Translations under genes and position numbers: made by a program
Shown here: positions 1,853 to 58,925 of the stretch, piece by piece
How the letters are laid out: each line of letters starts with the position of its first letter
Position numbering within the stretch: the first letter of the stretch is position 1
The notes under the pieces: model-generated
What the model was told of the DNA's origin: nothing
Databases searched by the model: none
The model's input: only the letters and a program-made list of their open reading frames with translations
Source of the DNA: an uncultured Acidobacteriota bacterium
GTDB taxonomy: Bacteria; Acidobacteriota; Thermoanaerobaculia; Multivoradales; UBA5704
Direction of reading: 5' to 3'
Assembly: GCA_963770895.1 (NCBI GenBank)
Contig: CAVYRF010000002.1
Coordinates: 3,392,001 to 3,456,000, forward strand
DNA: 64,000 nt

Positions 1853-3394
1853 TCAGCGCTTCAAGGTCTGGTCGTAGAACTGCGCCAGGTCGGCCTTCAG
1901 CTGGGTGAGCGCCTCGGGATGAAGGTAAATCATGTGGCCGGACTGGTAGTAGCCCCAATGGAGATTCTTCGCAAGGCTCGGATCGAGTCCCATGTGACCG
2001 ACGGTGTACTCCGTCTCGAAAAACGGCGTGGCGAAATCGAAGTAGCCGTTGGCGAAGAAGACATGGAGCCCCGGGTTGCGGCTCAGCGCCTGGCGCAGGT
2101 CCTCGGCCACATCCGGCATTGCGGCGCGTCCCATATCAGTGCGGTGACGGTCGTCCCAGTTGCCGCCAATCTCCTGAAAGTTGTTCTCGCGGTAGAGATC
2201 CTCGGTCTCGAACTTGAGATCGCCTCGCAGATAGGCGTTGAAGGCGCCCACGAAGGCCGGGGCGATGGACTGGTCGGCGGCATCGTACTCCGTGGCCTCG
2301 CCCGCGGCGTCGTGGTCGATGCCCTTGAACCGTGCGTCGAGCTGGCCGATCGTGCGCCGCTCGCTGCGCAGCAGCTCCTTCTCGAAGCGAGCAGGACTGA
2401 TGCGCAGGTTGGCGTTGCGGAGAAACGCGATCGGCAGGCCGGTGTAGCGGTGGAGCTTCTCCGCGGTCGCGGCAGCCACGCTCTCGCTGATGTGATCCCC
2501 GGCGGCGAGAGCCTGGAGGTACTCGCCGAGCGCAAAGCCGCGGACTTCGGCCAGGAAGGCCGGCAGATCGGCGGGCTGCGGGTCGAGCCGCTTGTGGTAC
2601 CAGGCGGCCGCGGCCATGGTGGGTAGATAGAGCGCATACGGAGTGTCGCTCGAGAACGGTGGGCCGTTGAAGTCGTCCCACGCGTTGAGGTACGACGAGA
2701 CCATCACCACGCCGTTGAACGCGACGCCGGAATCGAGCAGACGGTTGAGCAGGCCAGCGGCGCGGGTCGTTCCGTAGGATTCGCCGAGCAGGAACTTCGG
2801 CGAATTCCAGCGGCCGTTCTGGCTCACCCAGCGCTGGATGAACTGGGCAAACGCCGCGATGTCCGCGTCCGTGCCGTAGAAGTCCTTGCCCTCCCCTTTG
2901 CCGATGATGCGCGAGAAGCCGGTGCCCATGGCGTCGATGAACACCAGATCCGTCTTGTCGAGCAGGGTCGAGGCATTCTCGGCCACGGTGTAGGGCGGCG
3001 GCGGCGAAGGCGCGCCGTCGGTCGTCACCACGCGCACCGGACTGAACGAGCCCATGTGAAGCCAGATCGACGAGGAACCCGGTCCGCCATTGAAGCAGAA
3101 GGTCACGGGCCGCGCTTTCGCGTCCCGGCCGTCTGCCGTGTAGGCGACCGAGAACATCCGTCCGATCGGCTCATCCTTGTCGTTCTTGAGCTCGATGGTG
3201 CCCGCCGTCGCCGTGTAGTTGATCGCGGTTCCGCCGACGGAAATGTGGTGATGGGTCTGCGATGGCTTCGGGGCCTCCGACTTTTTCTCATCCGCGGCCT
3301 TGTCGTCTTTCTTTTCGGGCTCCGCGGCCGTCGCCACGGCCGCCACGATCAGCCACGCTCCACACGCCAGCGCCCAACGCTTGTCGATCCTCAC
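1853..3394 (-). CDS. Secreted serine carboxypeptidase, peptidase S10 family
   Basis: FNGGPGSSS, GESYG nucleophile and terminal SGHMIY motifs. N-terminal signal peptide. GTG 3394 preceded by GAGGAGG. Confidence 0.9.
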   Translation of the reverse strand: MRIDKRWALACGAWLIVAAVATAAEPEKKDDKAADEKKSEAPKPSQTHHHISVGGTAINYTATAGTIELKNDKDEPIGRMFSVAYTADGRDAKARPVTFCFNGGPGSSSIWLHMGSFSPVRVVTTDGAPSPPPPYTVAENASTLLDKTDLVFIDAMGTGFSRIIGKGEGKDFYGTDADIAAFAQFIQRWVSQNGRWNSPKFLLGESYGTTRAAGLLNRLLDSGVAFNGVVMVSSYLNAWDDFNGPPFSSDTPYALYLPTMAAAAWYHKRLDPQPADLPAFLAEVRGFALGEYLQALAAGDHISESVAAATAEKLHRYTGLPIAFLRNANLRISPARFEKELLRSERRTIGQLDARFKGIDHDAAGEATEYDAADQSIAPAFVGAFNAYLRGDLKFETEDLYRENNFQEIGGNWDDRHRTDMGRAAMPDVAEDLRQALSRNPGLHVFFANGYFDFATPFFETEYTVGHMGLDPSLAKNLHWGYYQSGHMIYLHPEALTQLKADLAQFYDQTLKR

Positions 3395-3697: not shown

Positions 3698-4717
3698 TCA
3701 GGCGGCTGAGGCTGGCGCAGCTGGGCAGGGGGATTTGCGGCCGATCACCAGGCCGAAAATGTCGGCGCGCCTTTCGAGGTCGAGGAAGCCGGCGGCGGTG
3801 AGAAGTTCCTCCACGTCGCCGTAGCTGGGCTGCCAGGTGTCGCGCCCCATGAAAAAGGCGTGGAAGACCGGTTCGATGTTGCCGGTCCAGTCGTCTTCGA
3901 AATAGGTCTCCTTGACCAGGATGGTGCCCCCCGGCTCAAGCGCCTGGTGGATCTTGGTCAGGATGGCCAGGTCCTGCTCCGGCGTCCAATTGTGGATGAT
4001 GTTTGACAGCAGCGCCACGTCGGCGCCCCGCGGCAGGTCGTCGATGAAGAAATCGCCGGCCACGAAGCGGACGTCGTCGCCGTCGCCGGCTTCCCGTATG
4101 CAGCGCCAGGCGAACTCTTCGGCCTTGGGCTGGTCGAAGAGGATGCAGCGCAGGTGCGGGTTATGGCGGCGCACGCCGAGCGAGATGCCGCCCGACGCGC
4201 CGGCGACGTCGAGCAGCACGCGGTGCCCCTTGAACGAATAGAGCTGCGCCAGCTGCTCGCCCCAGATGATGCGGCGGACGTTGACGTCGATGAAGTGATC
4301 TTCGTCGGACAACCGTTCGTAGCCATCGGTGGTCGGCGGATCGAGCAGCAGCGCCAGCAACTTCTCGCGCGACAGGTTGAACTTGAAGACCGCCTGCAGC
4401 TCTTCGAAATCGCGATCGTCGGCGAGCAGGAATGGGCCGATCTGCGGCGCGTTGGCCAGCTGCTTGTCGCGATAGACGAGCAGCCCTTCGCGGCACAGGA
4501 ACTGCGCCATGACGCGCGCCGACCAGACCGGCAGCGCGAGCATGGCGGCCAGCTCTTCCACGGTGGCGCGGCGGCCGGCCGGCTTTTGGAATACGCCCAT
4601 GTCGATGGCTACGGCCAGCATCGTGCTGGTCATCTTGCCGGCGGCCAGCGCCCGCACGCGATCCATGAAAAGCGCTTGGTCCAGGTTTCGCGCCAGCTTG
4701 TTGGAGTCGATGGTCAT
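3698..4717 (-). CDS. Class I SAM-dependent methyltransferase, O-methyltransferase (dimerisation + Methyltransf_2) type
   Basis: LLDVAGASG SAM motif, FVAGDFF and LSNIIHNW motifs, plus an N-terminal dimerisation region. Divergent from the NRPS operon. Confidence 0.85.
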   Translation of the reverse strand: MTIDSNKLARNLDQALFMDRVRALAAGKMTSTMLAVAIDMGVFQKPAGRRATVEELAAMLALPVWSARVMAQFLCREGLLVYRDKQLANAPQIGPFLLADDRDFEELQAVFKFNLSREKLLALLLDPPTTDGYERLSDEDHFIDVNVRRIIWGEQLAQLYSFKGHRVLLDVAGASGGISLGVRRHNPHLRCILFDQPKAEEFAWRCIREAGDGDDVRFVAGDFFIDDLPRGADVALLSNIIHNWTPEQDLAILTKIHQALEPGGTILVKETYFEDDWTGNIEPVFHAFFMGRDTWQPSYGDVEELLTAAGFLDLERRADIFGLVIGRKSPCPAAPASAA

Positions 4718-5021
4718 GGACGGATCGCCTTTTCTTGCGCACCCTGCGTCCTCGGCCTGCCGGGCACGCACCGGTTGTTGGAGCTCAGCACGGGGGCGCG
4801 ACCGCGCCGGGCTGGACGGATCGCATCGTTGGTCCTCAGGCACATGTGTGCGCCGGCCACACCCGCGCCTTGCGGCGAGACCGCAAGCGCCAGGCATAGC
4901 CCGCCCGTTAATGAGTGTGCTCTAGCTTAAGGAAAAGAGACAGGCGGCGATGAATCTCCGGGCGCCCCTGCCGTGGCCATACGGGGTTGGGGCATTCGCA
5001 GCATCTCATTAATAGACATAC

Positions 5022-5049
5022 TTGACAAACAACAAAATGTAACTATATT
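5022..5049 (+). promoter_or_regulatory. sigma70-type promoter for the desaturase-NRPS-PKS operon
   Basis: TTGACA (5022-5027), 16 nt, TATATT (5044-5049), in an AT-rich island upstream of GGAGGTG RBS and ATG 5097. Confidence 0.75.
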
Positions 5050-5096
5050 TAGATGCGTAAGTGAGAATAGAAGTTAGAAAGTTGGAGGTGACTTCG

Positions 5097-6029
5097 ATGC
5101 TGACCATAGGCAAGCCGCTCGCCGATATGAACTTGAGCGAGTTGGGCCACGTGAGAATCGCTCCTTTCCTGCTGCGCCTGGCGATCTGCATCGCTCTTGC
5201 GGCCGGAGCCATGGCGCTGATCCTGACCTCGCACGGCTGGCTGACCGCCGTCGGGATCGTCGCGCTGGGGCTGATCTATGCGCATGCCGTCGAGCTGCAG
5301 CACCAGGCCCTGCACAACACCGCCCTGCCCAGCAAGAGCTGGAATCGCATCGTCGGCTTCCTCCTCGGCCTGCCGATGCTGGTCTCGTATTCGGACTATC
5401 AATACAGCCATCTGCGCCATCACCGGCTGTTGGGCACCAAAGACGATCGTGAGTTCTTCAACTACGGTTACGACCATCTGACGTCGCTGAAACCGCTGGT
5501 CCTGCACCTGCTGATGGCGCGCCACTACCGCGACGTCACCGTGTTCATCGCCCAATCGCTGGTCGGTCGCACCAAGCAGTCGATCACCAAGCGCGACTCC
5601 GCCGAACACGTGCGCGCCGAATACCAGTTGATGGCCGTCTTTCTTGCCACCATGGCGGCGATCACGATCTATGCCCACACCGGGCTGTTCCTCAAGGTCT
5701 GGCTGCTCCCCCTGCTGATCGCGGTGCCGGCGCACGCCTTGATCGAGCTGCCGGAGCACTGGGGGCGCGATCACGGCACGCTCGACGTGGTGACCAACAC
5801 CCGCACCATCCGCGCCAGCTGGCTCGGCTACTGGTTTACCAACGGCAACAACTACCACATCGAGCACCACTGGCTGCCGGCGGTGCCCAACGACCGCTTC
5901 CCCGAGGTGCACGGCAGGATCGCCGACCAGATCCAGGTCGACACCTATCCGGGGTTCTATTGGCGCTTCCTCCAGGAGCTGTTCCGCAACACTTTCTCAA
6001 GCCGCGGCGAAGCGGAAAAGCTCGCCTGA
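5097..6029 (+). CDS. Membrane His-box desaturase/hydroxylase (fatty acid desaturase superfamily, MocD/RtxC/SylB-like)
   Basis: Three His boxes (HQALH, HLRHH, NYHIEHH) and hydrophobic TM segments. RBS GGAGG. Confidence 0.85.
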   Translation: MLTIGKPLADMNLSELGHVRIAPFLLRLAICIALAAGAMALILTSHGWLTAVGIVALGLIYAHAVELQHQALHNTALPSKSWNRIVGFLLGLPMLVSYSDYQYSHLRHHRLLGTKDDREFFNYGYDHLTSLKPLVLHLLMARHYRDVTVFIAQSLVGRTKQSITKRDSAEHVRAEYQLMAVFLATMAAITIYAHTGLFLKVWLLPLLIAVPAHALIELPEHWGRDHGTLDVVTNTRTIRASWLGYWFTNGNNYHIEHHWLPAVPNDRFPEVHGRIADQIQVDTYPGFYWRFLQELFRNTFSSRGEAEKLA

Positions 6030-6044
6030 CGGCGGGTCTTGATC

Positions 6045-31519
<25,475 letters not shown>

Positions 31520-31539
31520 CGGCCCGCGCTGGAGGAACC

Positions 31540-33987
31540 ATGGAGACTCTCTGGCAGGACATCCGGTTCACCCTCAGGACCCTGGCACGCAATCTCGGCT
31601 TTGCATGCATTGCGGTCTTCACTCTCGCGGTGGGAGTCGGCGCCACGACCACCGTCGCCACCGTCGCCGGCGCCGTGCTGCTGCACAGCCTGCCCTACCC
31701 CGATCCCCAGCACCTGCTGGTGCTGCAGGGCTACAAGAACGAAAAGGGGACGTTGGAAACCTTTCTCACCTCCTATCTCGACTACCGCGACTGGAAGAAC
31801 CGGCTGACCTCGTTTTCCGCACTGGGCGCCTACAACGGCCCCAAGAGCATGAACCTGCTGAGCGCCGGCGAGCCGGACCGGGTCAACGCCGAGATCGCCG
31901 ATTCCGACTACTTCCGCCTGCTGGGGGCGCAGCCGGCGCTCGGCCGCACGCTCACCCGCCAGGACGACGCCAACCCAGGTGCGTCGCGCGTTGCGGTGCT
32001 GTCCCACGCCATGTGGCAGCGCCGCTTCGGCGGCGATCGCGCCGCGATCGGCAAGAGCCTGGTGCTGGACGGCGAGAGCTACGAAGTGGTGGGTGTGATG
32101 CAGGCTGGCTTCAAGGGCCTGTCCGACGCGACCGACGTATGGCTGCCGCTGTCGCTGACCAAGGAGCTGATGGGCGCCCGCTTTTACGAAAGGCGCGGCG
32201 CACGCTGGCTGAACGTCATCGGGCGGCCGCGGCCGGGGGTCACCATGGCGGCGGCGCAGCACCAAATGGACGCCTTGAACGCCGCCTTGGCGCGGGACTT
32301 TCCCACCACCAATGAAGACATGGTCGCCAAGCTGGAGACGCTCGAGAAGTCGCTGTTCGGCGACCTGCGCTTCCCTCTGCTCACCCTGCTCGGCGCGTCG
32401 CTCTTCGTCCTGCAGATCGCCTGGGCTACGGTCGCCAACCTGCTGCTGGCCCGCGCCACGGCGCGGCGGCGCGAGATCGCCGTGCGCGGCGCGGTGGGCG
32501 CGACCCGCCTGCGTCTCATCCGCCAGCTGCTCACCGAAAGCATCGTGCTGGCGGGGGGCAGCTGCATCGTCGGGCTGCTCATCGCGCGCAGCGCCACGGC
32601 GCCCCTGGTGGCGCTCAGCGGGGTGCAATTCCCCAGCTTCGTGGACCTCGGTCTGAACCTGCCGGTGGTGCTGGCGGTCGCGGCGCTGTCGCTGCTGTGC
32701 GGCACGGCGTTCGGCTTGACGCCGGCCTGGCTGGGCGTACGCGGCAGCATCGGCACCCTGCGCGAAGGCAGCAGCTCGCTGGGTGTTGCGGGGCAGCGCT
32801 TTCAAAGCTCGCTGGTGGTCGCCGAAGTGGCCATCGCGCTCTTTCTGCTGACCGGCGCCGGGCTCATGGTGCGGGGCTTCCAGCACTTCAGCCAGGCGGA
32901 CCTGGGGTTCGCCCCCAAGGACCTCCTGGAGGTGCGCGTCGAGCTCAAGGGCAAACGCTACGCCGACAAGAAGATCATGATCCTCAAGGCGCGCGAATAC
33001 CGCGACCGGCTGCAGGCCATACCCGGCGTGCGGTCGGCGTCGCTGGTGGCCCCCTTCGGCCCGGGCGATCCCTTTCTGAGCAGTACCTTCATCGTCGAGG
33101 ATCTGCTGCCCAAGACCAAGGACGGCGCGGTGTTCCTGGTCTTCCACCACGTCTCCACCGGCTTTTTCGAGAACTTGAGGATGCCGCTTCTGGAAGGGCG
33201 CAGCTTCACCGAAAGTGACAGCGACACCAGCCTGCCGGTCATCGTCATCAGCCAGGCGATGAAGCGCAAGGTGTGGCCGAACGAAAGCCCGCTCGGCAAA
33301 CGCATGCGGTTCGGCAGGACCGATCCCACCTGGTTCACCGTCGTGGGGGTGGTGGGCGACCTCAACGAGCAGGCCATGCAGCAGCTCGAATGGCCCGGAC
33401 CGGACGTGTACTTTGACGCCTTTCAGTTTCCTTCAGCGATCATGCCGGTGTACAACTTCCTGGTTCGCGCCGCGCCCGGCCGGGCGCTCGCCCTGGCGCC
33501 CGCGGTGGAACGCGAGATTCGCGCCGTCAGCCCCGACCTGCCGCCCTACGACGTGGAAACCATGGAAGAGCGGCTGGCCGATTTCACCGCCAAGGGGCGT
33601 TTCCTGGTGGTGTTGATGACGCTGTTCGCCGCCCTGGCGCTGGTGATCGCGGCGGTCGGCCTGTACGGCGTGCTCTTCTACTCGGTCACCCGGCGCACGC
33701 GCGAGCTGGGCATCCGGGTGGCGTTGGGCGCCCAGACGCGCGACGTGGCCCACCTGGTGATGGGGCAGGCGGCGCTGCTGACGGCGATCGGCCTGGTCAT
33801 CGGCCTCGCCGGCGCGCTCAGCCTCAGCCGGCTGTTCGCAAGCCTGTTCTACGGGGTGAGCGCGACCGACCTGGCGACGTTCGCCGAAACCTCGTTGGTG
33901 CTGATGGGGGTGGCGATGGCGGCGGCCTGGTTCCCGGTGCGGCGCGCGGTGCGCATCCCGCCCACCATCGCCCTGCGCACCGAGTGA
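31540..33987 (+). CDS. ABC permease, MacB/FtsX duplicated type (acidobacterial duplicated orphan permease-like)
   Basis: METLWQDIRFTLRTL start, ANLLLARATARRREIAVR and RRTRELGIRVALGAQ motifs, C-terminal IPPTIALRTE. RBS GGAGG. 815 aa. Confidence 0.9.
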   Translation: METLWQDIRFTLRTLARNLGFACIAVFTLAVGVGATTTVATVAGAVLLHSLPYPDPQHLLVLQGYKNEKGTLETFLTSYLDYRDWKNRLTSFSALGAYNGPKSMNLLSAGEPDRVNAEIADSDYFRLLGAQPALGRTLTRQDDANPGASRVAVLSHAMWQRRFGGDRAAIGKSLVLDGESYEVVGVMQAGFKGLSDATDVWLPLSLTKELMGARFYERRGARWLNVIGRPRPGVTMAAAQHQMDALNAALARDFPTTNEDMVAKLETLEKSLFGDLRFPLLTLLGASLFVLQIAWATVANLLLARATARRREIAVRGAVGATRLRLIRQLLTESIVLAGGSCIVGLLIARSATAPLVALSGVQFPSFVDLGLNLPVVLAVAALSLLCGTAFGLTPAWLGVRGSIGTLREGSSSLGVAGQRFQSSLVVAEVAIALFLLTGAGLMVRGFQHFSQADLGFAPKDLLEVRVELKGKRYADKKIMILKAREYRDRLQAIPGVRSASLVAPFGPGDPFLSSTFIVEDLLPKTKDGAVFLVFHHVSTGFFENLRMPLLEGRSFTESDSDTSLPVIVISQAMKRKVWPNESPLGKRMRFGRTDPTWFTVVGVVGDLNEQAMQQLEWPGPDVYFDAFQFPSAIMPVYNFLVRAAPGRALALAPAVEREIRAVSPDLPPYDVETMEERLADFTAKGRFLVVLMTLFAALALVIAAVGLYGVLFYSVTRRTRELGIRVALGAQTRDVAHLVMGQAALLTAIGLVIGLAGALSLSRLFASLFYGVSATDLATFAETSLVLMGVAMAAAWFPVRRAVRIPPTIALRTE

Positions 33988-34053
33988 GCGCGGTGGCCCC
34001 GGCGGCGGCCATCCGGCGGCCGCCCGCCGGCGGGGCCGCCGGGCCGCCGGCGC

Positions 34054-35346
34054 TCACCAGTTGTGCGACAGCAGCTCCGCTTCGCCCAGCAGCTTCTTGC
34101 CGTAGCGGCGTTCGATCTGGGCGTTGATTTCGCCGCCCAGCGGACCGAACATCACCTCCTGCGAGATGCGCTCCATCGGGTGGGTGCCCGAAAAGATGCG
34201 CCCACCGATGATGCGGCGCGCTTCGACGACGATCTCTTCGGCGCACTTGCTGGCGTAGTGCTTGGCGGCGCAGGCCAGGTGGTAGGCGTCGGTGAGCTTT
34301 TCGGCGCTGGGGTGCACCGCCACCTCTTCGATGGCCAGCCCCGCCTGGCAGGCGAACGAACAAGCGCTGCGATAGCGGATCGCCAGGCGGCCGAGGTCGG
34401 TCACCATGCCGTCCAGCTCGGCCAGCGGCTTGTCGTCCGTCCCGCGCACCGAGCGCAGGAACTTGCGCGTCTCTTCCAGGGCGCGCGCCGCGGCGCCCAG
34501 AAACGGCGCGACAAAGAGCGCCTGGTGCCAGGCTACCTGGAACGCGATGATGCTCTTGTCCACCTCCAGCATGTTCTCGGGGGTGATGAAGGTGTTGAAC
34601 GTGATGCGCCGGGTGTCCGAGTCCACCATCGCGGTGGGGAACAGGAACGGCCCGATCTCAACTCCGGGGTTGTCGACCAGCGGGACCATGAACAGCGCCA
34701 CGCCTTCGTTTTCGATGCCGGTGAAGATGAAGGCGAGCTCGCTTTCGGTGGCCAGCGACATGTAGGCGGCGGTGCCGCGCAGGCGAAAGCCGCCGTCCTC
34801 GCGAGTGGCCAGCGAGCCGTAGCTTTCGATCTTGTCGGCATGGATGCGCGAAGTGGTGTTGGCGACCAGCATGTTGGTGGCGGAGAGGGTTTCGAGCAGC
34901 TGGCGCCGGCGGCTCGCGAGCGCCGGATTGTCCACGACGGGGAAGGTGGACAGCGAGCAGGTCACCGCATAGTGGTTGTAGATCGCCAGGCCCACCGCCG
35001 GCGATTCGGCGCCCAGACGGCGCAGCAGGTCGAAGCAGGCGCGGTGCAGGCCGCGCGGATTCTGGTTGTAAGGCAGCGGCAGCTTGGGCAGCTCTTCGGC
35101 GCGAAAGGCGCGATAGAAGATCGTCAGGTCCTTGGCGGCGATGGCCTCGGCCAGGGCGGCTTCGACGCGCGCGGCCTTGGCCGCAAGCTGGGCCGCCGTC
35201 GGCCTGGCGTCGCGGCCCGCCGGGGGCGGCCCGGCCGGCGCCGGGACGGCGGCGAGCACGGGCGCGGCCGGGACGGCGGCGGCGGCGGGAGCCGCCCCCA
35301 GCTCTGCGACCGCCGATTGGTGAGCTCTGCTGCTGTCGTCTGCCAT
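34054..35346 (-). CDS. Acyl-CoA/acyl-ACP dehydrogenase family protein (divergent)
   Basis: GGFRLRGTAAYMS, FLGAAARALEE, ACAAKHYA and IIGGRIF...PMERI match ACAD middle and C-terminal patterns. GGAGG RBS before ATG 35346. Confidence 0.8.
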   Translation of the reverse strand: MADDSSRAHQSAVAELGAAPAAAAVPAAPVLAAVPAPAGPPPAGRDARPTAAQLAAKAARVEAALAEAIAAKDLTIFYRAFRAEELPKLPLPYNQNPRGLHRACFDLLRRLGAESPAVGLAIYNHYAVTCSLSTFPVVDNPALASRRRQLLETLSATNMLVANTTSRIHADKIESYGSLATREDGGFRLRGTAAYMSLATESELAFIFTGIENEGVALFMVPLVDNPGVEIGPFLFPTAMVDSDTRRITFNTFITPENMLEVDKSIIAFQVAWHQALFVAPFLGAAARALEETRKFLRSVRGTDDKPLAELDGMVTDLGRLAIRYRSACSFACQAGLAIEEVAVHPSAEKLTDAYHLACAAKHYASKCAEEIVVEARRIIGGRIFSGTHPMERISQEVMFGPLGGEINAQIERRYGKKLLGEAELLSHNW

Positions 35347-35372
35347 GAGTTCCTCCAACGTTGCAACGCGCG

Positions 35373-37055
35373 TTAATGCCGTGCTCCGGCGGCCACCTGG
35401 GCGGCGCCCTGCACTGCGGAGCGATCCCATTCGATCAGGCCGTCCTTCATCTTGATCAGGCGGTCGGCCAGCGTGTAGTACTGATCGTCGTGGCTGATGA
35501 CAAAGACGGTCTTGCCCATGGCCTTGAGCTCCGGCAAGACCTCAAAATAGAAGATCGCCTTGAACTGCGGGTCCTGGTCCGCCGCCCATTCGTCGAAGAA
35601 GAAGATGGGCCGGTCCTCCAGGTAGGCGGTGAGCAGGGCCAGCCGCTTGCGCTGGCCCTGGGAGAGGTCCAGGGTCGAGATGACGCCGTCTTCGATGGTG
35701 ACCTTCCTGTCGAGCTGGAGGCGCTTGAGGTAGCCGCGCGCCGCTTCGTCCAGATTGACGCGTTCGAGCCCCATGAGGCTGTCGAACAGGTAGAAGTCGG
35801 TAAACACCGCGGCGAACATCTGGCGGTAGCCTTCGCGGTTGTCGCTGGTGATCGGCCGGCCGTCCACCAGGATCTCGCCGCCGTCCGGGATGTAGAGGCC
35901 GGCCAGCAGCTTGGCAAAGGTGGATTTGCCGCTGCCGTTGCCGCCGGTGACGAAGATCAGCTGGCCGGCCTCGAACTCCAGGTCGAGCGGTCCGATGTGA
36001 AAACGCTCGCCGGCGTCGTCGCCGGAGTATTGATAGAAGAGCTGTCTGAGCTCGAGCCGCTGCCAGGCCGGCGCGTCGCCGCGGTCGTCGGCCGAGGTTT
36101 CGACCGCCCTTTCGCTCAGGTCGATGCCCAGCCGATCGAGCTTGCGGACGGCGACGGCGGCGCGGCTGAAGTTGGGCAGCAGCTGGAAGATCGCCTCCAT
36201 CGGGCCGAGCATGTATAGCAGGCAGACGGTGAAGCCGGCGATCACGCGGGCGCCGACGTGCGAGCTGTCGCGGAAGCCGAAGATGATCAGACCGATGGCG
36301 ATGAAAAACAGCTGGTTGCCCCAGATCGTGGTGGCGATCAGCAGGTTGTTGCCGACGGCGGTCGAGCGGCGGATCTTTTCGCCGGTGGGGATCAACGCCG
36401 CGTCGATGAACGCCTGGCGGCGGCGGCGGTGGAGCTTCAGCTCCTTGGCGCCGTGGATCAGGCCGCGGAAGTGGGCAAACAGCTGGTCGGTGTGCTCACG
36501 CAGCTCGCGAAAGTGCTTTTGCGCGAGCCCCATGGCAAAGCTGTAGGTCAGGCTGCCGGCCACCATGAAGCCGAGCACCACAAGGAGCATGCGCCACGAC
36601 AGCCAGCCCATGTAGGCCAGGCAGGTCAGTACGATCGCCGACTGCATGAGCAGCACCGGGATCTGGGTCAGGGCGTTGGACAGTACGGTGATGTCGTCGG
36701 TCAGCGAGGCGAGCAGGCGGTGGCTGCCGATCTCTTCCATGCGGCGCAGCGGCGAAGCCAGGATGCGGCGGCACGACTGCAGGCGGGTTTCGAACATGGC
36801 GCGGGTTGCCAGGTAGTTGAAGATGCTCTGCGTCACCAGGCGGCTGACCGGCACCAGCACGGCGAGCGCGACAAAGCCGTAGAGCAGCCGAGGGTCGCGG
36901 TTGCCGGCGATCACGCTGCTGATGATGGCCAGCCAGGCGGTCAGGCCCAGGCCGCTGATCAGGCCGGTGCACAGCGCGGCGGCGATCTGCGCCCGCGACC
37001 GGCTGACGTTGCGCGACATGCGCAGCAGGTAGGAAATGAGCTTGGCGATCTCCAT
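35373..37055 (-). CDS. Cyclic peptide export ABC transporter (SyrD/PvdE/YojI family)
   Basis: Six TM segments, HGAKELKLH, Walker A GGNGSGKST, LSQGQRKRLAL signature and FDEWAADQDP. Confidence 0.92.
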   Translation of the reverse strand: MEIAKLISYLLRMSRNVSRSRAQIAAALCTGLISGLGLTAWLAIISSVIAGNRDPRLLYGFVALAVLVPVSRLVTQSIFNYLATRAMFETRLQSCRRILASPLRRMEEIGSHRLLASLTDDITVLSNALTQIPVLLMQSAIVLTCLAYMGWLSWRMLLVVLGFMVAGSLTYSFAMGLAQKHFRELREHTDQLFAHFRGLIHGAKELKLHRRRRQAFIDAALIPTGEKIRRSTAVGNNLLIATTIWGNQLFFIAIGLIIFGFRDSSHVGARVIAGFTVCLLYMLGPMEAIFQLLPNFSRAAVAVRKLDRLGIDLSERAVETSADDRGDAPAWQRLELRQLFYQYSGDDAGERFHIGPLDLEFEAGQLIFVTGGNGSGKSTFAKLLAGLYIPDGGEILVDGRPITSDNREGYRQMFAAVFTDFYLFDSLMGLERVNLDEAARGYLKRLQLDRKVTIEDGVISTLDLSQGQRKRLALLTAYLEDRPIFFFDEWAADQDPQFKAIFYFEVLPELKAMGKTVFVISHDDQYYTLADRLIKMKDGLIEWDRSAVQGAAQVAAGARH

Positions 37056-37108
37056 CGGTTCTCCTGGCGGCGAGCGCTGGCTGTCTGACGCGGCGGCCGC
37101 ACGTCACC

Positions 37109-38557
37109 TCACGTTTCCATGAGCACGGTCGAGGAATGGCGGCTGCGCTGCATCGTGTCGCGGAACACCCGGTCGTAGTTGTGCGACAACGCCAGGTACA
37201 GGTCGGCCACCGCGTTACCCGGTCCGGGGTTGCCGAAGAGCACCTCGGCGCCCCAGATGAGCCGCTGCTTCGCGCTGGCCCTCAAATAGCGCAGGCCGTG
37301 GCGGACGAACGCGAAGCGATCGCGCAGCCCTGCCCACTGGATGTTCTTCCACAGGAAGCTGGGGCTGGCGTAGGATTCGTGGTCCAGATTCGCCAGGTAG
37401 AACAGGTAAACCAGCATCGAGTTGATGCGGTAGTAGCGGTCGAGCGCCTTGCCGTAGTCGGCGAGCGGCGCGAGCCCTCCGGATTCGTCCTGGAGCAGGC
37501 GATCGAGGGGCTCGACCAGGGCGAAGGCGCTGTTGAAGGCGACCTGGAGGCCGGTGGAGAACACCGGGTCGATGAAGCCGGCGCTGTCGCCGACGATGAT
37601 CCAGCCGTTGCCGGAGTAGCGCTTGGAACGGTACGAGTAGTCCTTGACGCAGCGGAAGCGTTCGATGCGCCGCATGGTGGGGTTTTGCAGCAGATCGCCG
37701 ATGTAAGGGATGTCCTGTGCGTAGTCGTTGAAGATGGCTTCAAGGCTCTTTTCCTTGGCTGCGTCCTTGACCGTCTGCTGGCTGAGCACCACCCCCAGCG
37801 ACAGCACGTTCCTGGCGATCGGGATGTACCAGGCCCAGTCGCGGTGGTTGCGGTGGACGCACAGCTTGAAGTTGAGATCGCGGTCGGTGTTGGTGATTTC
37901 GATGTCGCCCTGCCAGTGGCTGAACACCGCCATCTTGTTCTCAAGCAGGGGGTCCGGGTACCAATTGTCCTTGAGCTGGTGGTTGATCACCGCTCCCTGT
38001 CCCGAGGCGTCGATGATCCAGCGGCCGTACGCGCGGTGGGTCGCTTCGGGGTCGTCGCCTGCCAGGTTCTTGTATTCGACGCCCACCGCGCGGTCGCCCT
38101 GGAAGAGCACGCGCTTGACCAGATGCTCTTCGCGCACGTCGACGCCGTGGCGGCGGGTGTTGCGCAGCAGCACTTCGTCGAGCGTGGCGCGCGCCATCTG
38201 GAAGGCGTAGGGCCGTTCGCCCGGCTCGTTGACCAGCTGGGACGAGAAATAGATTTTGCTGCTCTTGTCGTGGCGGACGAATTCGAGCCCCTTCTTCTTT
38301 ACAAAGTTTGCCGCCTTCAGCTCGTCGTAGACGCCCAGCTCGCGAAAGGCGGTCAACCCGAAGGCGGTGATCGATTCGCCGATGTGGAAGCGCGGAAAGA
38401 GCGCGCGCTCCAGCATCAGTACGCGATGCCCGCGCTTTGCCAGCATGGTGCCGCAGGTGGTGCCGGACGGACCGCCGCCGATGATCACCACGTCGAAGTG
38501 CTCGGCGGAATTACCGTTCGGGGACGGTAACGGAGATGGGTTGTCTGCCGTGGTCAT
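37109..38557 (-). CDS. FAD-dependent halogenase (carrier-protein/phenol-type flavin halogenase family)
   Basis: GGGPSG FAD motif, FPRFHIGES, WAWYIP (WxWxIP) and GDSAGFIDPVFSTG. Confidence 0.8.
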   Translation of the reverse strand: MTTADNPSPLPSPNGNSAEHFDVVIIGGGPSGTTCGTMLAKRGHRVLMLERALFPRFHIGESITAFGLTAFRELGVYDELKAANFVKKKGLEFVRHDKSSKIYFSSQLVNEPGERPYAFQMARATLDEVLLRNTRRHGVDVREEHLVKRVLFQGDRAVGVEYKNLAGDDPEATHRAYGRWIIDASGQGAVINHQLKDNWYPDPLLENKMAVFSHWQGDIEITNTDRDLNFKLCVHRNHRDWAWYIPIARNVLSLGVVLSQQTVKDAAKEKSLEAIFNDYAQDIPYIGDLLQNPTMRRIERFRCVKDYSYRSKRYSGNGWIIVGDSAGFIDPVFSTGLQVAFNSAFALVEPLDRLLQDESGGLAPLADYGKALDRYYRINSMLVYLFYLANLDHESYASPSFLWKNIQWAGLRDRFAFVRHGLRYLRASAKQRLIWGAEVLFGNPGPGNAVADLYLALSHNYDRVFRDTMQRSRHSSTVLMET

Positions 38558-38647
38558 CTTGAATCTCCAGCTGCGGCGCGCCGAGGGCGAAAGCCCGGAG
38601 CTTGGAACGGGCGCCGCGGCAGCCCTTGGCGCAGCAAATCCAACAAA

Positions 38648-38676
38648 ACTATATCAAGTAATGATGACTATGTCAA
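38648..38676 (-). promoter_or_regulatory. sigma70 promoter for the halogenase-exporter-ACAD operon
   Basis: Minus strand reads TTGACA, 17 nt, TATAGT, with TG of an extended -10. Confidence 0.8.
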
Positions 38677-38758
38677 TACACTCATATGCGCCTGAGTCTT
38701 GGCGCGGGCTGCCCGCAAGCTGCCGTCCGCAGGCATACCCCTGTATGTATATGTGAAG

Positions 38759-38787
38759 TTGCAAAATTATTTAGGATTGAATATGAT
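38759..38787 (+). promoter_or_regulatory. sigma70 promoter for the hypothetical gene at 38862
   Basis: TTGCAA, 17 nt, TATGAT in an AT-rich divergent region. Confidence 0.7.
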
Positions 38788-38861
38788 TTGTTCATGCGGT
38801 GCGCGCTGGCGCGGGCGGCGGTCGGAATGGGCAGCAGGGACACGCTGACCGGTGCGCCGCC

Positions 38862-40418
38862 ATGACCCAACCCATCCAGGAAACCGTGCAGCGCGGCGTC
38901 GGGAGCGAGCCGCCGAGCGTGGACGAAGATCTGGTGCGCCACGGCCTCGCCATGCGGCCGGTGCTCGCGGCCCTGCTGCGCGAATCCGGCGAGCTGCCGC
39001 TGCTCGACTACGCGGCGGGCTTTTTCACCCGCGGCGGGCCGCCGGTCTCACCGGTGGGCCTGGCCGTGGTCGAGCGCGCGGCGGGGCGGCTTTTCGGCGC
39101 CCGCGCCGGCGCCGAAATCGCCGCCCAGCTGCGCTGCCAGCCGGCGATCAACACCGCCGAGCACCTGGCGCCGATGTTCCATCCGCGGCGCTTCCAGAGC
39201 AACCTGCTGGGCGCCTATGCCGCCGCCGAACAGGGAGCGGCCTGCATGCCGGTGTTGGCCTGCTCGAACATCTCGCTGTCCAATTCGTCCCATCCGCGCG
39301 GCATCTTCTGGAATCAGCAGCCGCTGCAACTCATCCCCCGCAACCCCCATGGAACCGTCCACACCTGGCCTGCCGTCGAGCGCCAGGTCTTCCTGGACCT
39401 GCCCGCGGCGGCCCGCGTCGCCGCCGGCATGGCGTACCTGACGGCGGCCGTGCCGCAGCTCGCGGCCCTACCGGTCGGTGAGCAGCGCAACCGGGTGCGC
39501 AAGCGGCTCGCCGGGGCGCTCAAGGAGCTGTCCGGCAACCCGGCCAAACGGCTGCCCAGCACCGAGCTGCCCGAGCAGGTGCAGGCGCTGCTGCGCGCGG
39601 CGCTGCCTGGGGCGCGCGCGACGGGCGCCGCCCAAGAGATCGAGGTGCGGACCTGCCTGGTCGAGGCGCTGCCTCCTGAGCTCTTTGCCGAGCCGCGCTA
39701 CATCCACCAGGTCTGCCGCTTGAACGGCGCGCTGTGGGAGCGCGCCATGGGCGGCCGCCTGCCGCGGCTCATCTATCTGCCGATGGAAGAGATCTCCACG
39801 GCTCTGCTGCGCTACGCGCTGCGCGATCCACACGACCCGCTCCATGCGATGCTGCTGAATGCGGACGCCCGTGCTCTCGCCTTGGACCTGTTTGCCGATC
39901 TGCCCTACGCCTGGTCCGAGTCCGGAGGTACGCATTTCTTCTGGCAGCTGGGGCCCAAGGGGCAGAGGTTCCCAATGCGCCACGACGGCGCCGCCCTCTG
40001 CGGACAGGGCTGTCGCATCGAGTTGCGGCAAAACGGCCTGCTGGACGCCCTGGACGCCCTCGCGATCGTACCGGCGACCCTGCTGCAAATGCTGCTGCTG
40101 GTCCACCACGGCTTCCGCTGCCTGGGCGGCTTCAATCAGATCCAATTTCTGCCGGCGATGCGCCGACAGATGCGCGAGTTCTGCCGTCAGACCGGCCGCG
40201 CCGCGGTCGCCGACGAACGCTACGATGCCGAGCTGCCGAGCGACTTTCTGGCCGGTCCCCTCTTCTGGTGGCGCGGCGCACCCGAGGCCCCGGCCTCGCT
40301 GGACACCTTCCTGCGCCAACCCGAGCGCAGCCGCGAAGAAGCGGCCTGCGCCGTCCGCCGTCTGAGCCTGCGCAGCGCCACCCTGCTGGGTCTGCCCGAC
40401 CTGATCCAGCTGCTCTGA
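38862..40418 (+). CDS. Hypothetical protein with enzyme-like motifs, about 518 aa
   Basis: Long ORF with GC3-biased codons and its own promoter. Motif-like blocks INTAEHLAPMFHP, CSNISLSNSSHPRG, GGTHFFW and CLGGFNQIQFL. Confidence 0.75.
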   Translation: MTQPIQETVQRGVGSEPPSVDEDLVRHGLAMRPVLAALLRESGELPLLDYAAGFFTRGGPPVSPVGLAVVERAAGRLFGARAGAEIAAQLRCQPAINTAEHLAPMFHPRRFQSNLLGAYAAAEQGAACMPVLACSNISLSNSSHPRGIFWNQQPLQLIPRNPHGTVHTWPAVERQVFLDLPAAARVAAGMAYLTAAVPQLAALPVGEQRNRVRKRLAGALKELSGNPAKRLPSTELPEQVQALLRAALPGARATGAAQEIEVRTCLVEALPPELFAEPRYIHQVCRLNGALWERAMGGRLPRLIYLPMEEISTALLRYALRDPHDPLHAMLLNADARALALDLFADLPYAWSESGGTHFFWQLGPKGQRFPMRHDGAALCGQGCRIELRQNGLLDALDALAIVPATLLQMLLLVHHGFRCLGGFNQIQFLPAMRRQMREFCRQTGRAAVADERYDAELPSDFLAGPLFWWRGAPEAPASLDTFLRQPERSREEAACAVRRLSLRSATLLGLPDLIQLL

Positions 40419-45384: not shown

Positions 45385-45504
45385 CTGGGAGTCGCCGCCG
45401 GCAAGCAAGGCAGCACCCGATCGATCGCAGGCTCGCGTTCCATCCGCATGGCGCGGGCGGGGCGCGGGGAACCGCTACCTCAACCGACAAGGAGCTCGAA
45501 ACTC

Positions 45505-46800
45505 ATGATCCCTCAATGTCCACCGATTCCGCGCCCAAGCATCCGCCGGACCCAGTGCTCAGTTGGCAGCATGATCGTGATCACGCTGCTTTTGACTGCA
45601 GCGGCTCGGGCGCAGGCAAACCGCGTGTTGCGGTTCGACAACCAATGTTCGCAGGCGGTCTGGATCGGAGCGACCGGCGGATTCACGCAGCCCTGTGGCG
45701 CCGGCAACTCCTGCCCGAGCGGCCAGGCGTGTCTCACCACCCGCAGCACTCCCGGCTGTTTTTGGGTGCTGCCGTTGCCGGCGAGCGGCTCGCTGCTGCT
45801 CGCGGCCGGCACGAGCACCAAGGTGACTCTGGCGACGCCGCCACAAAGCAATGTCAAATGGAGCGGCAATATCTACGGCAGCACCGGCTGCAACAGCGGC
45901 GGTCAGAGCTGCCAGACCGGAGCTTGCGTGGGTGGCTCCTGCCCGGCCGGCACGGGACCGGTCGGACCGACCACGCTTGCCGAGCTCACGCTGCTGACCA
46001 ATGGACCGGACACCTACGACGTCTCGATGATCAACGGTGTCAATCTCCCCTTGTCGATCGCGCCCACCCCGGGACAGAAGTTTGGCACGCCGCCCGCGGG
46101 TGCGGCGGCCGACTATTTCTGCGGCGCTCCCGGCAAACCTCGGCCTCTCAACTCCGCTCTGCAGGGCTGTACCTGGCAGTTCAATCCGACGATCAAGCAA
46201 ATCGATCAGTCGCCGTTCCTGCGCATGGTCGGCCCCGGCGGCAACGCGTGCACGCAGGACAGCGATTGCACGTCGCCCCAGCTGTGCGGCCTGGCGATGA
46301 CGGTCGGTCTGACGACGGTGAGCCAGGTCTGCGGCACGCAGATCGGTTGGTGGACCGCCGACGAGGTGTGCACGTTTACCGGCTCCGCCTTCGGTGCGCC
46401 GTTCAACTGCTCCGCCGGTGTTTACGGTCAGGGGACCAACACCAACCTCTACCTCTGCAGCGGCGTCAACGCCAGCACCTGCTACGGCTCCAGCTCGACG
46501 GCGACCTGCTGCGGCTGCCCGCAGTGGACGTTCGATGGCAAGGCCCTGGCGGCGGCCATGAGCTGCGGCGCGAACAACCAGACGACCAATCCGTCATGGA
46601 ACCAGATCGCTCAGCCGTGGGCGCAGTTTGCCAAGCAGGCGTGCCCGACGGCATACAGCTTCCCGTTCGACGACGCCACCAGCACGTTTACCTGCGCCGG
46701 CAGCAACTCCGCTGCCAATGCCGTCGACTACACGATCACCTACTGCCCGGGAGGCAAGAGCGGAGTGCCGCCGCAAGTTGCGTCCAGTCCGCGGAAGTGA
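45505..46800 (+). CDS. Secreted Cys-rich thaumatin-like (PR-5 / beta-1,3-glucanase-like) protein
   Basis: NQCSQAVW, GPTTLAELTL, DTYDVSMINGVNLP, KQACPTAYSFPFDDATSTFTC and YTITYCP. Signal peptide ending AARAQA. Alternative start at 45571. Confidence 0.88.
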   Translation: MIPQCPPIPRPSIRRTQCSVGSMIVITLLLTAAARAQANRVLRFDNQCSQAVWIGATGGFTQPCGAGNSCPSGQACLTTRSTPGCFWVLPLPASGSLLLAAGTSTKVTLATPPQSNVKWSGNIYGSTGCNSGGQSCQTGACVGGSCPAGTGPVGPTTLAELTLLTNGPDTYDVSMINGVNLPLSIAPTPGQKFGTPPAGAAADYFCGAPGKPRPLNSALQGCTWQFNPTIKQIDQSPFLRMVGPGGNACTQDSDCTSPQLCGLAMTVGLTTVSQVCGTQIGWWTADEVCTFTGSAFGAPFNCSAGVYGQGTNTNLYLCSGVNASTCYGSSSTATCCGCPQWTFDGKALAAAMSCGANNQTTNPSWNQIAQPWAQFAKQACPTAYSFPFDDATSTFTCAGSNSAANAVDYTITYCPGGKSGVPPQVASSPRK

Positions 46801-53508: not shown

Positions 53509-56500
53509 TCACCGAGCAGGTAGCGGCCACGCGCGGTGATCAATCACAAACGGGGTGAAGGCCAACTCCTTGCCGCAGTGCTGACAGTTGCCCCCATTCA
53601 AGTTCCTCCGGCTCCGCCGACCGCGACGGCCCGCTAGCGGCTTGAGCGGGCTACGTTCTCCGCACCAGGCGCACACAAAGGTAATCTCACGCGCCCAGCT
53701 CTCCTCGGGCCGAGGATGCCACAATCGTACTCCGGTTACGATCGGCACCCCGAGATCAACGTTCCTGAGGCGCACGACGTGCACCTCTCCTGTATCGGTG
53801 CCGATCGCGAATCGACCGCTCGGTCCGAGATCGAGCACCTTGTGAACAGGCGCCGACATCGCATGGACGCCAAGGCACTCGCCCTCCCGAACATCCCACA
53901 AGCGGGCCGTGGCGTCGCGGGATCCCGAAATGAGCCTGCGCCCGTCGCTCGAAGCGCTCAGGGAGCCGACCCGCGCCGTGTGCCCCAAAAGCTGTCTGCC
54001 CGCTTCGCCGCCGGCCGGTGGGAAGGGAAAGACCTGGATCAGGCCGGCGTCAGTGCCAACGGCGATCCAGCGGGCGTCGGGGGAGAAACAGAATGAGACG
54101 CCTGGAACATTTGCGATGGTCTCGCCAGTCATCACGTCCACGAGCACGCCAGCCAGGCCCGTCTGGCAGAGAAGCATCCGGCCGTCCGGCGAAAACTCGA
54201 GCTGTAACGATGTCTCGTTCAGCGTCAGCTTCGTGGTCCCATAAGCCAGGTCGTAAATGCAAACCCACTCGTCCTCGAGCGCCGCGGCCACGAACCGGGA
54301 ATCCGGCGTCACTGCGAGGGCCGTACACCCCTCTCCATCTTGGTTCCACTGCAGGACCGCGACAGGTTCCTTGATGCCGCGCCGCCACACGCAGACTGCG
54401 CTCTGGCTGAGGTCGTCGCCCGCCACAACGATCGCCGGGTCCGCCGTGTATAGCGCGCGACTTTCGTTTGCCCCAGCCTTTTTCTGGAACACCTCAACCA
54501 AACTACCGGTTGCAAGCTCCCAAATGCAGAGCTGATCGTCCTGGCTGGCCGAGATCGCGTGCAGGCTATCCGGAGAGATGCTCACCGACAGCACTTTGTC
54601 GTGATGACCCTTACGTGTGATCGGTAGGCGCTCGGGATCGAGCAGATCAAGGATTTGGATGGTCGAGTCTCCGTTGGCCGACACGAGCCAGCGCCGGTCC
54701 GGTGACACCGCGAGGTCGAAGACGTACCAGGTGTGACCCCGCGGTATGGCTCCGGCAGCGATCTGGTTCGCGTCCCACACCGCAAGCCGTCCGTTTGCAA
54801 GACCTGTGGCAGCGATGCGTCCGTCAGCTGACATGCCCACGGTGATAGCTTCAGGAACATACCACTCCGCGGTGCTGGACCGCGCAACGAGGTCCCAGGT
54901 CCGGACCGTGTCATCGTGGTGAACGGAGATCGAGCGGCGCCCGTCAGCAGTGATGTCGATCGCCTCGATCCAGGCGTTTCCACCACCACTCATGCTGGGA
55001 ACCGAATAAGTTTCGTAGTCGATCGTCTCCAGGAGCCCCGCAGCGACCTCGAGCACGTGAACCCCTCGCCAGCCGCCGATGACCGCCCTCCGCCCGCCAG
55101 GATCCATCGCTATGCTATGGGCGGGCAGCGCCAGCGACAGGTCATGGACCCGCTCCCCTGACGTCCCATCAAACACCCGTACGAAGTGCTTTTCTACGAG
55201 AAGGAACACAGTCGTGCCACCGGGAGCAGGGGAGATACAAGAGACCCAGTTGTCACCGAGGTCCGACTGCCTCTGCGTCCCCGCCAGGATGTCCGCAACA
55301 ATGACGTGATCGTGATTGCCGACGAACGCCAGTTCGCCGTGGCCGGCCGCGACTTCTCCCGTGACATGGCTGTCGCCGAAGTGCATCAGCTGGCGCACCT
55401 CCCCACGATCGATGCTCCATTCGTCGATGCGGTATTCGAGAGATTCCTCGGCAGCGGGACGATTGGAGGACAGCACGCAGATCGTCGGAGAAGTCCAAAG
55501 CAGGGCGTACACGAGTCCTTCGTAATGCTGATGCGCCGACTCCCGGCCAGCGCCCACCGCGTCGTAAACCACAAGAGAATCGCCGTGGTGCACCGCGACT
55601 CGCGATCCATCCGGCGAGAGCGCACTGGCGGTCAAAAATGGTCCTGAGAGACTCGCTTGCCATACAGAGGCAGCTGAGTCAAGATTGATAAGCTCGATGG
55701 ACGGCGGCTCCGCCCTTGCTACAACGACACGAGAACCCTGATCGTCAACGGTAGCATGATCGAACGTCTCTGCTAATCTGATGCCCCTGGGTGGGTCTCC
55801 GGCGAGGGGGCCGCTCAACCAGAACCAAGCGAGAGAGCGACTGCTGAGCGCGACCACCTTCCGATCGTCGGCGGTGAAAAGCACCTGGCGAATCTCTTCG
55901 GAGCCGCAGTCCACGGTCCTCATCAGGCTCCTGCTCCCTACGTCCCACAGGCAGACCTTCCCACAGAGGTGGCCGGAAAGAAGCTGCTCGCCGCTCGCCG
56001 AGACTGCGAGGCAGGTCGGCGTTGACGGCGGCCAGAGAAAGCCGATGGGACGGTGGCGCTCAAGGTCCCAATGACTGATCACGAGGTCGGTACCGCAGCA
56101 TACGATCCGGGAACCGTCGGCAGACATGCAAGCGTGAGATCCGCTGGGCCTGTGCGTCGCCGCAGGAAGCACGACGCGAGTCCGGCGCCGGGAAACATCC
56201 CATGACGTAACGGTCTCGTCGCCAACGCTCAGAGCGAAATCGCCACTGGGCGTGAGAGCGACGCATTGCACCCACCCCGTAGTTCCGAGGACCGTCTGAC
56301 CGCCGGTTTCGAGGTTGAGAAGACGCAGCTCGGAGCCGGCGCCAAAGATGGCCACGCGAGCGTCGCCGTTCATCGCCAGGCAGCCAATATGTTCCCCCAG
56401 CGACATCTCCCGCGTGCAGACGGCGCGTTCGAGATTCCACAGACGCACGAAGCCAGTCCGGTCCTCGCGACTGCCCATCAGCGCCTGCTTGCCATCCAAG

Positions 56501-58653: not shown

Positions 58654-58925
58654 GGCATTGAGAGGCTTCGTCCTGCTGAAGATACAGGAATGTGCTTCAT
58701 CGCGACCAGTGGGTACCGAACGACCGAGGACGGGCGAAAGCCAGCTCGGCTGACACCGCCTTTTATGGCACCGCAAGCAGATCTCCCAGCGCAGCTCGGG
58801 CCACGGACGCGCGCCGTAGTGCACAGGCCCTCGTATACCTGCTCGCTGTGGTCGGTGGCGGTGGCAGCGCTCGCGGCGCGCTCGAGCAGGTGAGCGCTAA
58901 GGCCCAGGCCGCAGAAACACGCCAG

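Follow-up and report, generated by a model that had tools for sequence, protein, structure and literature searches.

We analyzed a 64,000 bp stretch of DNA (hereafter the window; contig CAVYRF010000002.1, G000:C2:3392001-3456000) from an uncultured Acidobacteriota bacterium [GCA_963770895.1], whose genome assembly comprises 8.16 Mb with 71% GC in three contigs. An earlier note, made from the letters of the window, had described here an apparently complete, unrecognised halogenated lipopeptide-polyketide cluster with a fatty acyl-AMP ligase (FAAL) and acyl carrier protein (ACP) starter, five adenylation (A) domains, one reducing polyketide synthase (PKS) module, a desaturase, an O-methyltransferase, an acyl-CoA dehydrogenase-like enzyme (ACAD), a flavin halogenase and two exporters. 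All these parts were found by Pfam and NCBIfam searches; the methyltransferase, however, can be named as an S-adenosylmethionine (SAM)-dependent enzyme of the O-, N- or C-type. The stretch of about 35 kb between positions 3698 and 38557 is a genuine gene cluster, and these are its best boundaries (Table 1). It is composed of two convergent operons, desaturase-NRPS1-NRPS2-ADOP and halogenase-ABC-ACAD (NRPS, nonribosomal peptide synthetase; ABC, ATP-binding cassette), with the methyltransferase gene divergent at the left.

Table 1. Features of the gene cluster; positions are those of the window
Feature	Position	Strand	Basis or remark
SAM methyltransferase (Methyltransf_2)	3698..4717	-	Pfam
Sigma-70-type promoter, 11/12 match, inward	5022..5049	+	drives desaturase-NRPS operon
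Membrane di-iron desaturase, AfcC-like (FA_desaturase)	5097..6029	+	Pfam, homologues, neighbours, tree
NRPS1: FAAL-ACP-C1-A1-T-C2-A2-T-C3-A3-T	6039..17948	+	Pfam/NCBIfam
A3 domain, Lys/Arg-type	about 16056-17573	+	within NRPS1
Hybrid PKS-NRPS2: KS-AT-KR-DH-ACP-C4-A4-T-C5-A5-T-C6, no TE	17941..31519	+	Pfam
+1 frameshift inside KS, between two catalytic His motifs	18960..18970, near 18965	+	assembled sequence
Terminal C6 domain (HHLIIDG), small clade	30089..31408	+	clade search, neighbours
ADOP (MacB-like, MacB/FtsX) permease	31540..33987	+	Pfam/NCBIfam
Divergent ACAD-fold flavoenzyme, dehydrogenase or monooxygenase	34054..35343	-	Pfam, Foldseek
Cyclic-peptide export ABC transporter (SyrD/PvdE type, TIGR01194)	35373..37055	-	NCBIfam
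Flavin-dependent halogenase, CndH type	37109..38557	-	PDB 3e1t match, motif alignment
Sigma-70-type promoter, 11/12 match, inward	38648..38676	-	drives halogenase-ABC-ACAD operon

The two megasynthases form one assembly line in which a FAAL-ACP starter is followed by collinear condensation-adenylation-thiolation (C-A-T) and ketosynthase-acyltransferase (KS-AT) modules, the arrangement of FAAL-primed NRPS-PKS clusters; four AMP-binding domains, three C domains and four carriers were counted by Pfam in NRPS1. The specificity codes extracted by alignment from A1 to A5 (DLFNNALTYK, DIFQMVLVYK, DIESVATIIK, DITQLGLVWK and DVWHISLIDK) coincide with those read by hand in the earlier note, whose gene list was also correct. 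The specificities predicted from them are, in order, Ala, Gly/Ala-like with an atypical pocket, a basic residue, Gly and Ser; the orthologues of A2 have a Gly code, from which that of A2 has diverged. The best solved match of A3 was the A1 domain of ApnA (pocket DVESIGVIAK against DIESVATIIK), which we take to activate Arg and Tyr, so that Arg has to be considered for A3 as well. A3 probably loads Lys, and Arg is a less likely, though not negligible, substrate. It counts against these readings that the ApnA specificity and the code-to-substrate key for Ala, Gly and Ser are our assumptions; literature searches for the code strings and the ApnA pocket residues revealed nothing supporting either.

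The HHxxxD motif is present in all six C domains. The catalytic motifs of the KS (Cys-His-His), AT (GHSxG and HAFH, presumably of malonyl type), ketoreductase (KR) and dehydratase (DH) are intact and agree with those of the orthologues, which supports the previously proposed extension of the basic residue by malonate with reduction and dehydration; the proposed backbone order of a FAAL-primed lipopeptide was supported too. An active-site-intact KS-AT-KR-DH set located after an NRPS module, as found here, defines the vinylogous-amino-acid hybrids (barnesin, syrbactin and thalassospiramide kind) and makes vinylogous residues according to PMC13096860. As had been claimed for epimerase (E) domains, no E family was matched by Pfam in the cluster megasynthases, and the same was true of thioesterase (TE) families. 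GC content at third codon positions (GC3) is 0.88-0.93 across the cluster. The host genome contains four other full-length FAAL-like genes and one desaturase gene.

The cluster is not a lone orphan. By searching relatives with the ACAD and with the desaturase we revealed eight other loci (G003 C5, G008 C205, G061 C59, G061 C33, G062 C8, G063 C12, G064 C113 and L105) containing on one contig the same head, i.e., the desaturase, an A domain coded DIES[VI]AT[IV][IV]K and the reducing PKS, of which only KR-DH was seen in L105. Three further short contigs carried A3 followed by KS. The head recurs across Acidobacteriota loci, and the named homologues of the ACAD and the desaturase belong mostly to Thermoanaerobaculia or other Acidobacteriota, in agreement with the phylum considered in the earlier note. 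The tails differ among all head loci where they are visible. The closest relative, G061 C59 (75% identity for the desaturase, 67% for the halogenase, 70% for the ABC transporter and 65% for the ACAD), has an intact KS, five tail modules and a terminal TE. In G003 and G008, module 2 contains an inserted luciferase-like oxygenase and an FkbM methyltransferase, both absent in the window.

As a query chosen independently of the desaturase, the A3 core was then compared across 92 family genomes (91 besides the host) with 30 candidates scored per genome; the A3 of G003 was missed, and related genomes are not independent of each other. The desaturase is present in nine of the 91 other genomes. These nine account for 11 of the 12 A3 matches that scored best outside the window cluster itself (E up to 1.6e-95), and eight of the 12 lie on the contig of the desaturase and within 11 kb of it. 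In L102 and L105 the A3 module comes immediately after the desaturase and no FAAL was seen in the fetched DNA, and in three G028 loci it accompanies A3-like domains with no PKS after them. Among the tailoring genes, whose lack of co-conservation with the megasynthases had been named as grounds for rejecting the cluster, it is the desaturase that goes together with modules 3 and 4, whereas the ACAD was found in three, the halogenase in two and the methyltransferase in one of the eight head loci, as counted within the 14-160 kb fetched for each. It should be mentioned that a 440-aa domain without a Pfam family is fused after the A3-T module in L195:3-12494 (G115 C90) and G063:C12:363262-373347; G003 has tandem copies that stand alone, and the host genome (G000) has two homologues. 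On visual inspection, the domain may be related to ATP-grasp ligases.

The desaturase most likely acts on the basic amino acid of module 3, because it occurs together with A3 and is also found without an adjacent FAAL. With the desaturase of a Burkholderia locus (L125) it shares 41% identity (E 1e-68). That locus is surrounded by genes for an AMP ligase, ABC subunits, a LolA-like protein, a carrier protein, an AurF/acyl-ACP desaturase-like protein and a LysR regulator; by gene order, its desaturase fits AfcC. In PMC12186527, deletion of afcC leaves lysine unprocessed and AfcC dehydrogenates L-Lys, and in PMC13614206 the double bond is placed at C4-C5. Among 42 selected genes scanned around the desaturase homologues of 11 sister loci, a gene of basic-amino-acid type was found close to the homologue in eight loci, including Orn/Lys/Arg decarboxylases, SET-domain genes, cyclodeaminases and B3/4 editing domains (two of each), and additionally DapB and an amino-acid permease in L135; none was seen among the genes scanned in L124 and L111. 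In L117:9902-13207 and in L113 the desaturase homologue is followed by a SET-domain gene, in Chlorogloeopsis also by a PLP decarboxylase, which suggests a small lysine-modifying operon.

Taken together, a model can be proposed that we favour slightly. A fatty acyl starter would be loaded by FAAL-ACP, and the three modules of NRPS1 would add Ala, Gly or Ala, and Lys or Arg. The desaturase would introduce a double bond into the basic residue, at C4-C5 as in the case of AfcC, and the polyketide module would convert this residue into an alpha,beta-unsaturated amide, giving for Lys a 4,8-diamino-octa-2,6-dienoyl unit. Gly and Ser would be added next, and the chain would leave by the action of the terminal C domain, in the simplest case as a ring closed by the side-chain amine. 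Written as acyl-Ala-(Gly/Ala)-[vinylogous dehydrolysine]-Gly-Ser, the predicted product would be a Michael acceptor like barnesin or syringolin and would act as a covalent inhibitor of the protease-inhibitor type. The ACAD, halogenase and methyltransferase would modify it optionally, with the acyl starter as their most likely target.

Several observations weigh against the action of the desaturase on the module-3 residue. One top A3 match (G118 C20) lies in a genome lacking the desaturase; in a tree of 81 rows the window desaturase belongs to an Acidobacteriota clade, where its neighbours are proteins of Acidobacteriota and cyanobacteria, and is separate from the Burkholderia group and the AfcC clade, so that its likeness to AfcC would mean a similar way of working and not membership; AfcC is thought to act late on the finished peptide, and the timing may differ here. 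In addition, the desaturase gene adjoins FAAL in the window and in several relatives directly precedes it, its Pfam family is FA_desaturase, and in G061 C59 the halogenase adjoins it. These last features would suit an enzyme modifying the fatty-acyl starter, with module 3 loading plain Lys or Arg, in the manner of JamA, JamB and JamC, which cooperate with the halogenase JamD in making a tail that ends as a haloalkyne or haloalkene. We consider this improbable, as the desaturase follows A3 and not FAAL, being present without an adjacent FAAL in G003, G008, L102 and L105 and missing from the FAAL clusters without A3 (G015 C3, G025 C8 and G027 C49), while the halogenase is absent from six of the eight head loci in the fetched DNA and the sister homologues adjoin basic-amino-acid enzymes. 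The same low probability can be given to hydroxylation of Arg at C4 by a desaturase-fold enzyme resembling GntB, which would yield a vinylogous hydroxy-arginine. GntB is indeed the best NCBIfam match of the desaturase (E 1e-15), and the Glu/Ser pocket pair is common to A3 and ApnA A1; but the match reached 58 bits against a cut-off of 380 and is far weaker than that to the afc-type desaturase, and the SET, cyclodeaminase and DapB neighbours of the homologues favour lysine.

Another question is whether the assembly line works in its present host, as it would only if the KS frameshift were an assembly error. The KS match of Pfam is split over two frames, and the KS is intact in the six orthologues compared; because of this frameshift and the missing TE, its earlier description as complete was overstated. 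An error of assembly is slightly favoured by us. Against it, the host assembly shows three frame breaks in about 500 NRPS/PKS domain matches, and the site lies outside homopolymer runs with no slippery heptamer visible, which makes a real lesion plausible. The cluster could then be a recently broken, recombined remnant directing at most a truncated acyl-tripeptide, a real possibility that we would put somewhat below even. Besides the rarity of frame breaks, such decay would agree with the short Gly-Ser-C tail without its 450-aa partner (see below) and with the departure of A2 from the Gly code; on the other side, the other catalytic motifs, both strong promoters and the GC3 values are intact, and no second frameshift or stop was found in the 35 kb. 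The remnant can be reconciled with the chemistry proposed for the family. As to independent reads, a public run holding 0.10 of the words yielded contigs from other organisms, none of which spans the frameshift site, and the 17 loci picked up in metagenome contigs by a 21-base scan showed no relationship outside the seed. A CCTG-N6-CAGG palindrome at the frameshift was dismissed as evidence, since the genome contains 1032 copies, most likely reflecting codon use.

A search for the C6 clade in the 91 other genomes, with 18 candidates scored per genome, revealed four other copies (E up to 1e-105), all terminal and located after A(DVWHISLIDK)-T. In G118 C394 this tail forms a C-A-T-C protein with no other NRPS in the 40 kb fetched out of 66 kb, which indicates that the terminal Ser-T-C cassette is a mobile unit. 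Some terminal C domains cyclise the chain (RapP/FkbP) or add amines. For C6, the simplest inference is that the side-chain amine of module 3 closes a ring, and transfer to an outside acceptor is about equally open. It weighs against the proposed model that a 450-aa partner is present at three of the four other Ser-T-C6 loci and missing from the host genome. Members of this family (L191:12692-14083, L192:11093-12403 and L028:1122-2474; 436-463 aa, 42-54% identical) had no Pfam, PDB or Atlas match. The closest copies of the ADOP permease occur in other Ser-T-C6 or methyltransferase/ACAD loci.

As regards the optional genes, all eight other genomes holding the methyltransferase are among the 13 of 91 that hold the ACAD, four of them with both on the same contig; this restriction suggests that the methyltransferase acts on the ACAD product. 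In Foldseek, DszC, TdsC and DnmZ stood just above ACADs for the ACAD-fold enzyme, all at most 20% identical and about equally close, while a Glu near the canonical ACAD site is kept in 46 of 47 sequences. The element common to ACAD loci with enough DNA is an acyl starter, FAAL or ACP, and the enzyme likely acts on it. A diamino-acid substrate was considered too, but became less likely in view of G103 C13, where FAAL, two ACADs and the halogenase occur together and the A domains read (all outside one frameshifted stretch) showed no such code. Two other clusters with this family (L020:10140-14684 and L024:7710-14549, in G025 C8 and G028 C3) combine sulfotransferase domains in internal position with carbamoyltransferases, TauD and A codes of Dab/Dap-like type, a set reminiscent of sulfated beta-lactam or ureido pathways.

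The best solved match of the halogenase is CndH (PDB 3e1t; E 1e-56), with which it shares the catalytic Lys and the signature motifs WxWxIP and FIDPxFSxG, all intact. In its subfamily (58-66% identity, 20 other matches in 61 genomes), Lys and GxGxxG are found in all 21 covering rows of the alignment, and WxWx[IL]P and FIDP[IV]FSTG in all 22. CndH chlorinates carrier-bound Tyr, whereas no aromatic A-domain code is present in the window cluster; one shared among the halogenase loci was sought and not seen. Seven of the nine halogenase loci with the first NRPS checked begin with an acyl-type carrier, and three loci besides that of the window have FAAL, but acyl starters are common in the family and this link is therefore weak. 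With the gene in so few head loci and no aromatic substrate encoded, the designation of the product as halogenated was not supported as it stood; we lean slightly towards halogenation, most likely on the acyl part. Next to NRPS clusters, members of the subfamily often share an operon with genes for a lysine N-hydroxylase and for a MetRS-like protein, a pair that we take to be a signature of hydrazine (N-N bond) biosynthesis. Such operons were seen in L064:11135-18993 (G008 C569, also with cupin and DAO-type genes), L069, L075, L081 and L066, and the host has a paralogue with genes of matching sizes (G000:C2:4129257-4136863).

The AT-rich gaps at the cluster ends drop to 26-36% GC in 50-base bins against about 70% overall. 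Each contains one of the 16 sigma-70 sites with an 11/12 match found in the whole genome, and this inward pair defines the two convergent operons. The AT-rich divergent promoters of the earlier note were thus confirmed as AT-rich gaps with strong inward sites, while a scan of the left gap found no outward promoter for the methyltransferase. Its right boundary (3698..40418) was shortened, since the open reading frame (ORF) at 38862-40418 is placed beyond the right promoter and is not matched by any gene of the related clusters. This ORF (518 aa, coding-like GC3 of 0.88, weak promoter) was dropped as a cluster gene, as no link to the cluster was seen. It has no Pfam or NCBIfam family and no match in metagenome contigs, its sole match in 60 relatives is weak (E 1.8e-4), its Atlas look-alikes are unnamed with recognition below threshold, and no profile match to the 450-aa family was obtained (probability 0.6%). 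An S10 carboxypeptidase (window 1853-3394) was rejected as a member as well, having a 98.9% identical 1.8-kb copy 29 kb upstream (G000:C2:3364448). As noted before, the window contains no MbtH or phosphopantetheinyl transferase gene; they form an adjacent pair at G000:C2:2497438 and 2498999, about 900 kb away. Elsewhere in the window, positions 53509-58824 encode a 1771-aa protein with Mrr-type nuclease, NB-ARC/NACHT-like ATPase and WD40 repeats by Pfam, an NLR-like architecture that may belong to an anti-phage sensor, and positions 45448-46800 a bacterial thaumatin-domain protein (Pfam) with similarity to the LegT model below its cut-off.

Literature searches (code strings, the Sorangium ACAD match, products of Thermoanaerobaculia and Acidobacteriota) revealed nothing on the cluster and no matching compound. 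That it went unrecognised is unsurprising in a host with 31 NRPS/PKS loci and for machinery of a familiar kind. Among the reactive groups of protease and proteasome inhibitors, vinylogous amino acids are rare. For vinylogous Arg, only barnesin and miraziridine are counted in PMC13096860, and no vinylogous dehydrolysine product was found in the literature searched, MIBiG lying outside its scope. Through the head cassette, what looked like a single unmatched cluster becomes one member of a family for which a definite structure can be predicted, and of which G061 C59 is an intact example. It can be suggested, although tentatively, that a portable three-part Acidobacteriota cassette installs an undescribed vinylogous dehydrolysine warhead on many peptide tails, here joined to the mobile Ser-T-C release cassette, and defines a new family of covalent-inhibitor lipopeptides.

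Among known systems, AFC-BC11 (afc, Burkholderia) has a homologous membrane desaturase and a FAAL start but, according to PMC12186527 and PMC13614206, no C domains or modular PKS, and its lysine is C-terminal and desaturated late; the identity level and separate clade given above place the window enzyme outside the AfcC clade. The syrbactin syringolin (syl), according to PMC2773804, combines the desaturase SylB, thought to act on lysine, with a reducing PKS making a vinylogous amide; there, the vinylogous residue derives from Val and is distinct from the dehydrolysine, the PKS stands at the end together with TE, and the cap is ureido. In the window, compared with SylB by description, both changes would fall on one internal residue, and the PKS is internal, after the basic residue and without TE, whereas in syrbactins a terminal PKS-TE following Lys-Val/Ala modules closes a 12-membered lactam. 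The nearest chemistry to the predicted product is that of barnesin A (brn, Sulfurospirillum barnesii), with an acyl cap, a basic residue extended by KS/KR/DH and a cyclic-peptide exporter; in PMC13096860 it has a starter C domain, two NRPS modules, Tyr-Arg, trans-AT and TE directly after the PKS. The window cluster falls outside the brn family, having the FAAL-ACP start, cis-AT, five A modules with two of them after the PKS, a terminal C domain in place of TE, and additionally the desaturase, halogenase, ACAD and methyltransferase. Thus, the assembly line is of a familiar kind, and its new part is the family-wide cassette predicting an undescribed vinylogous dehydro-Lys/Arg unit.

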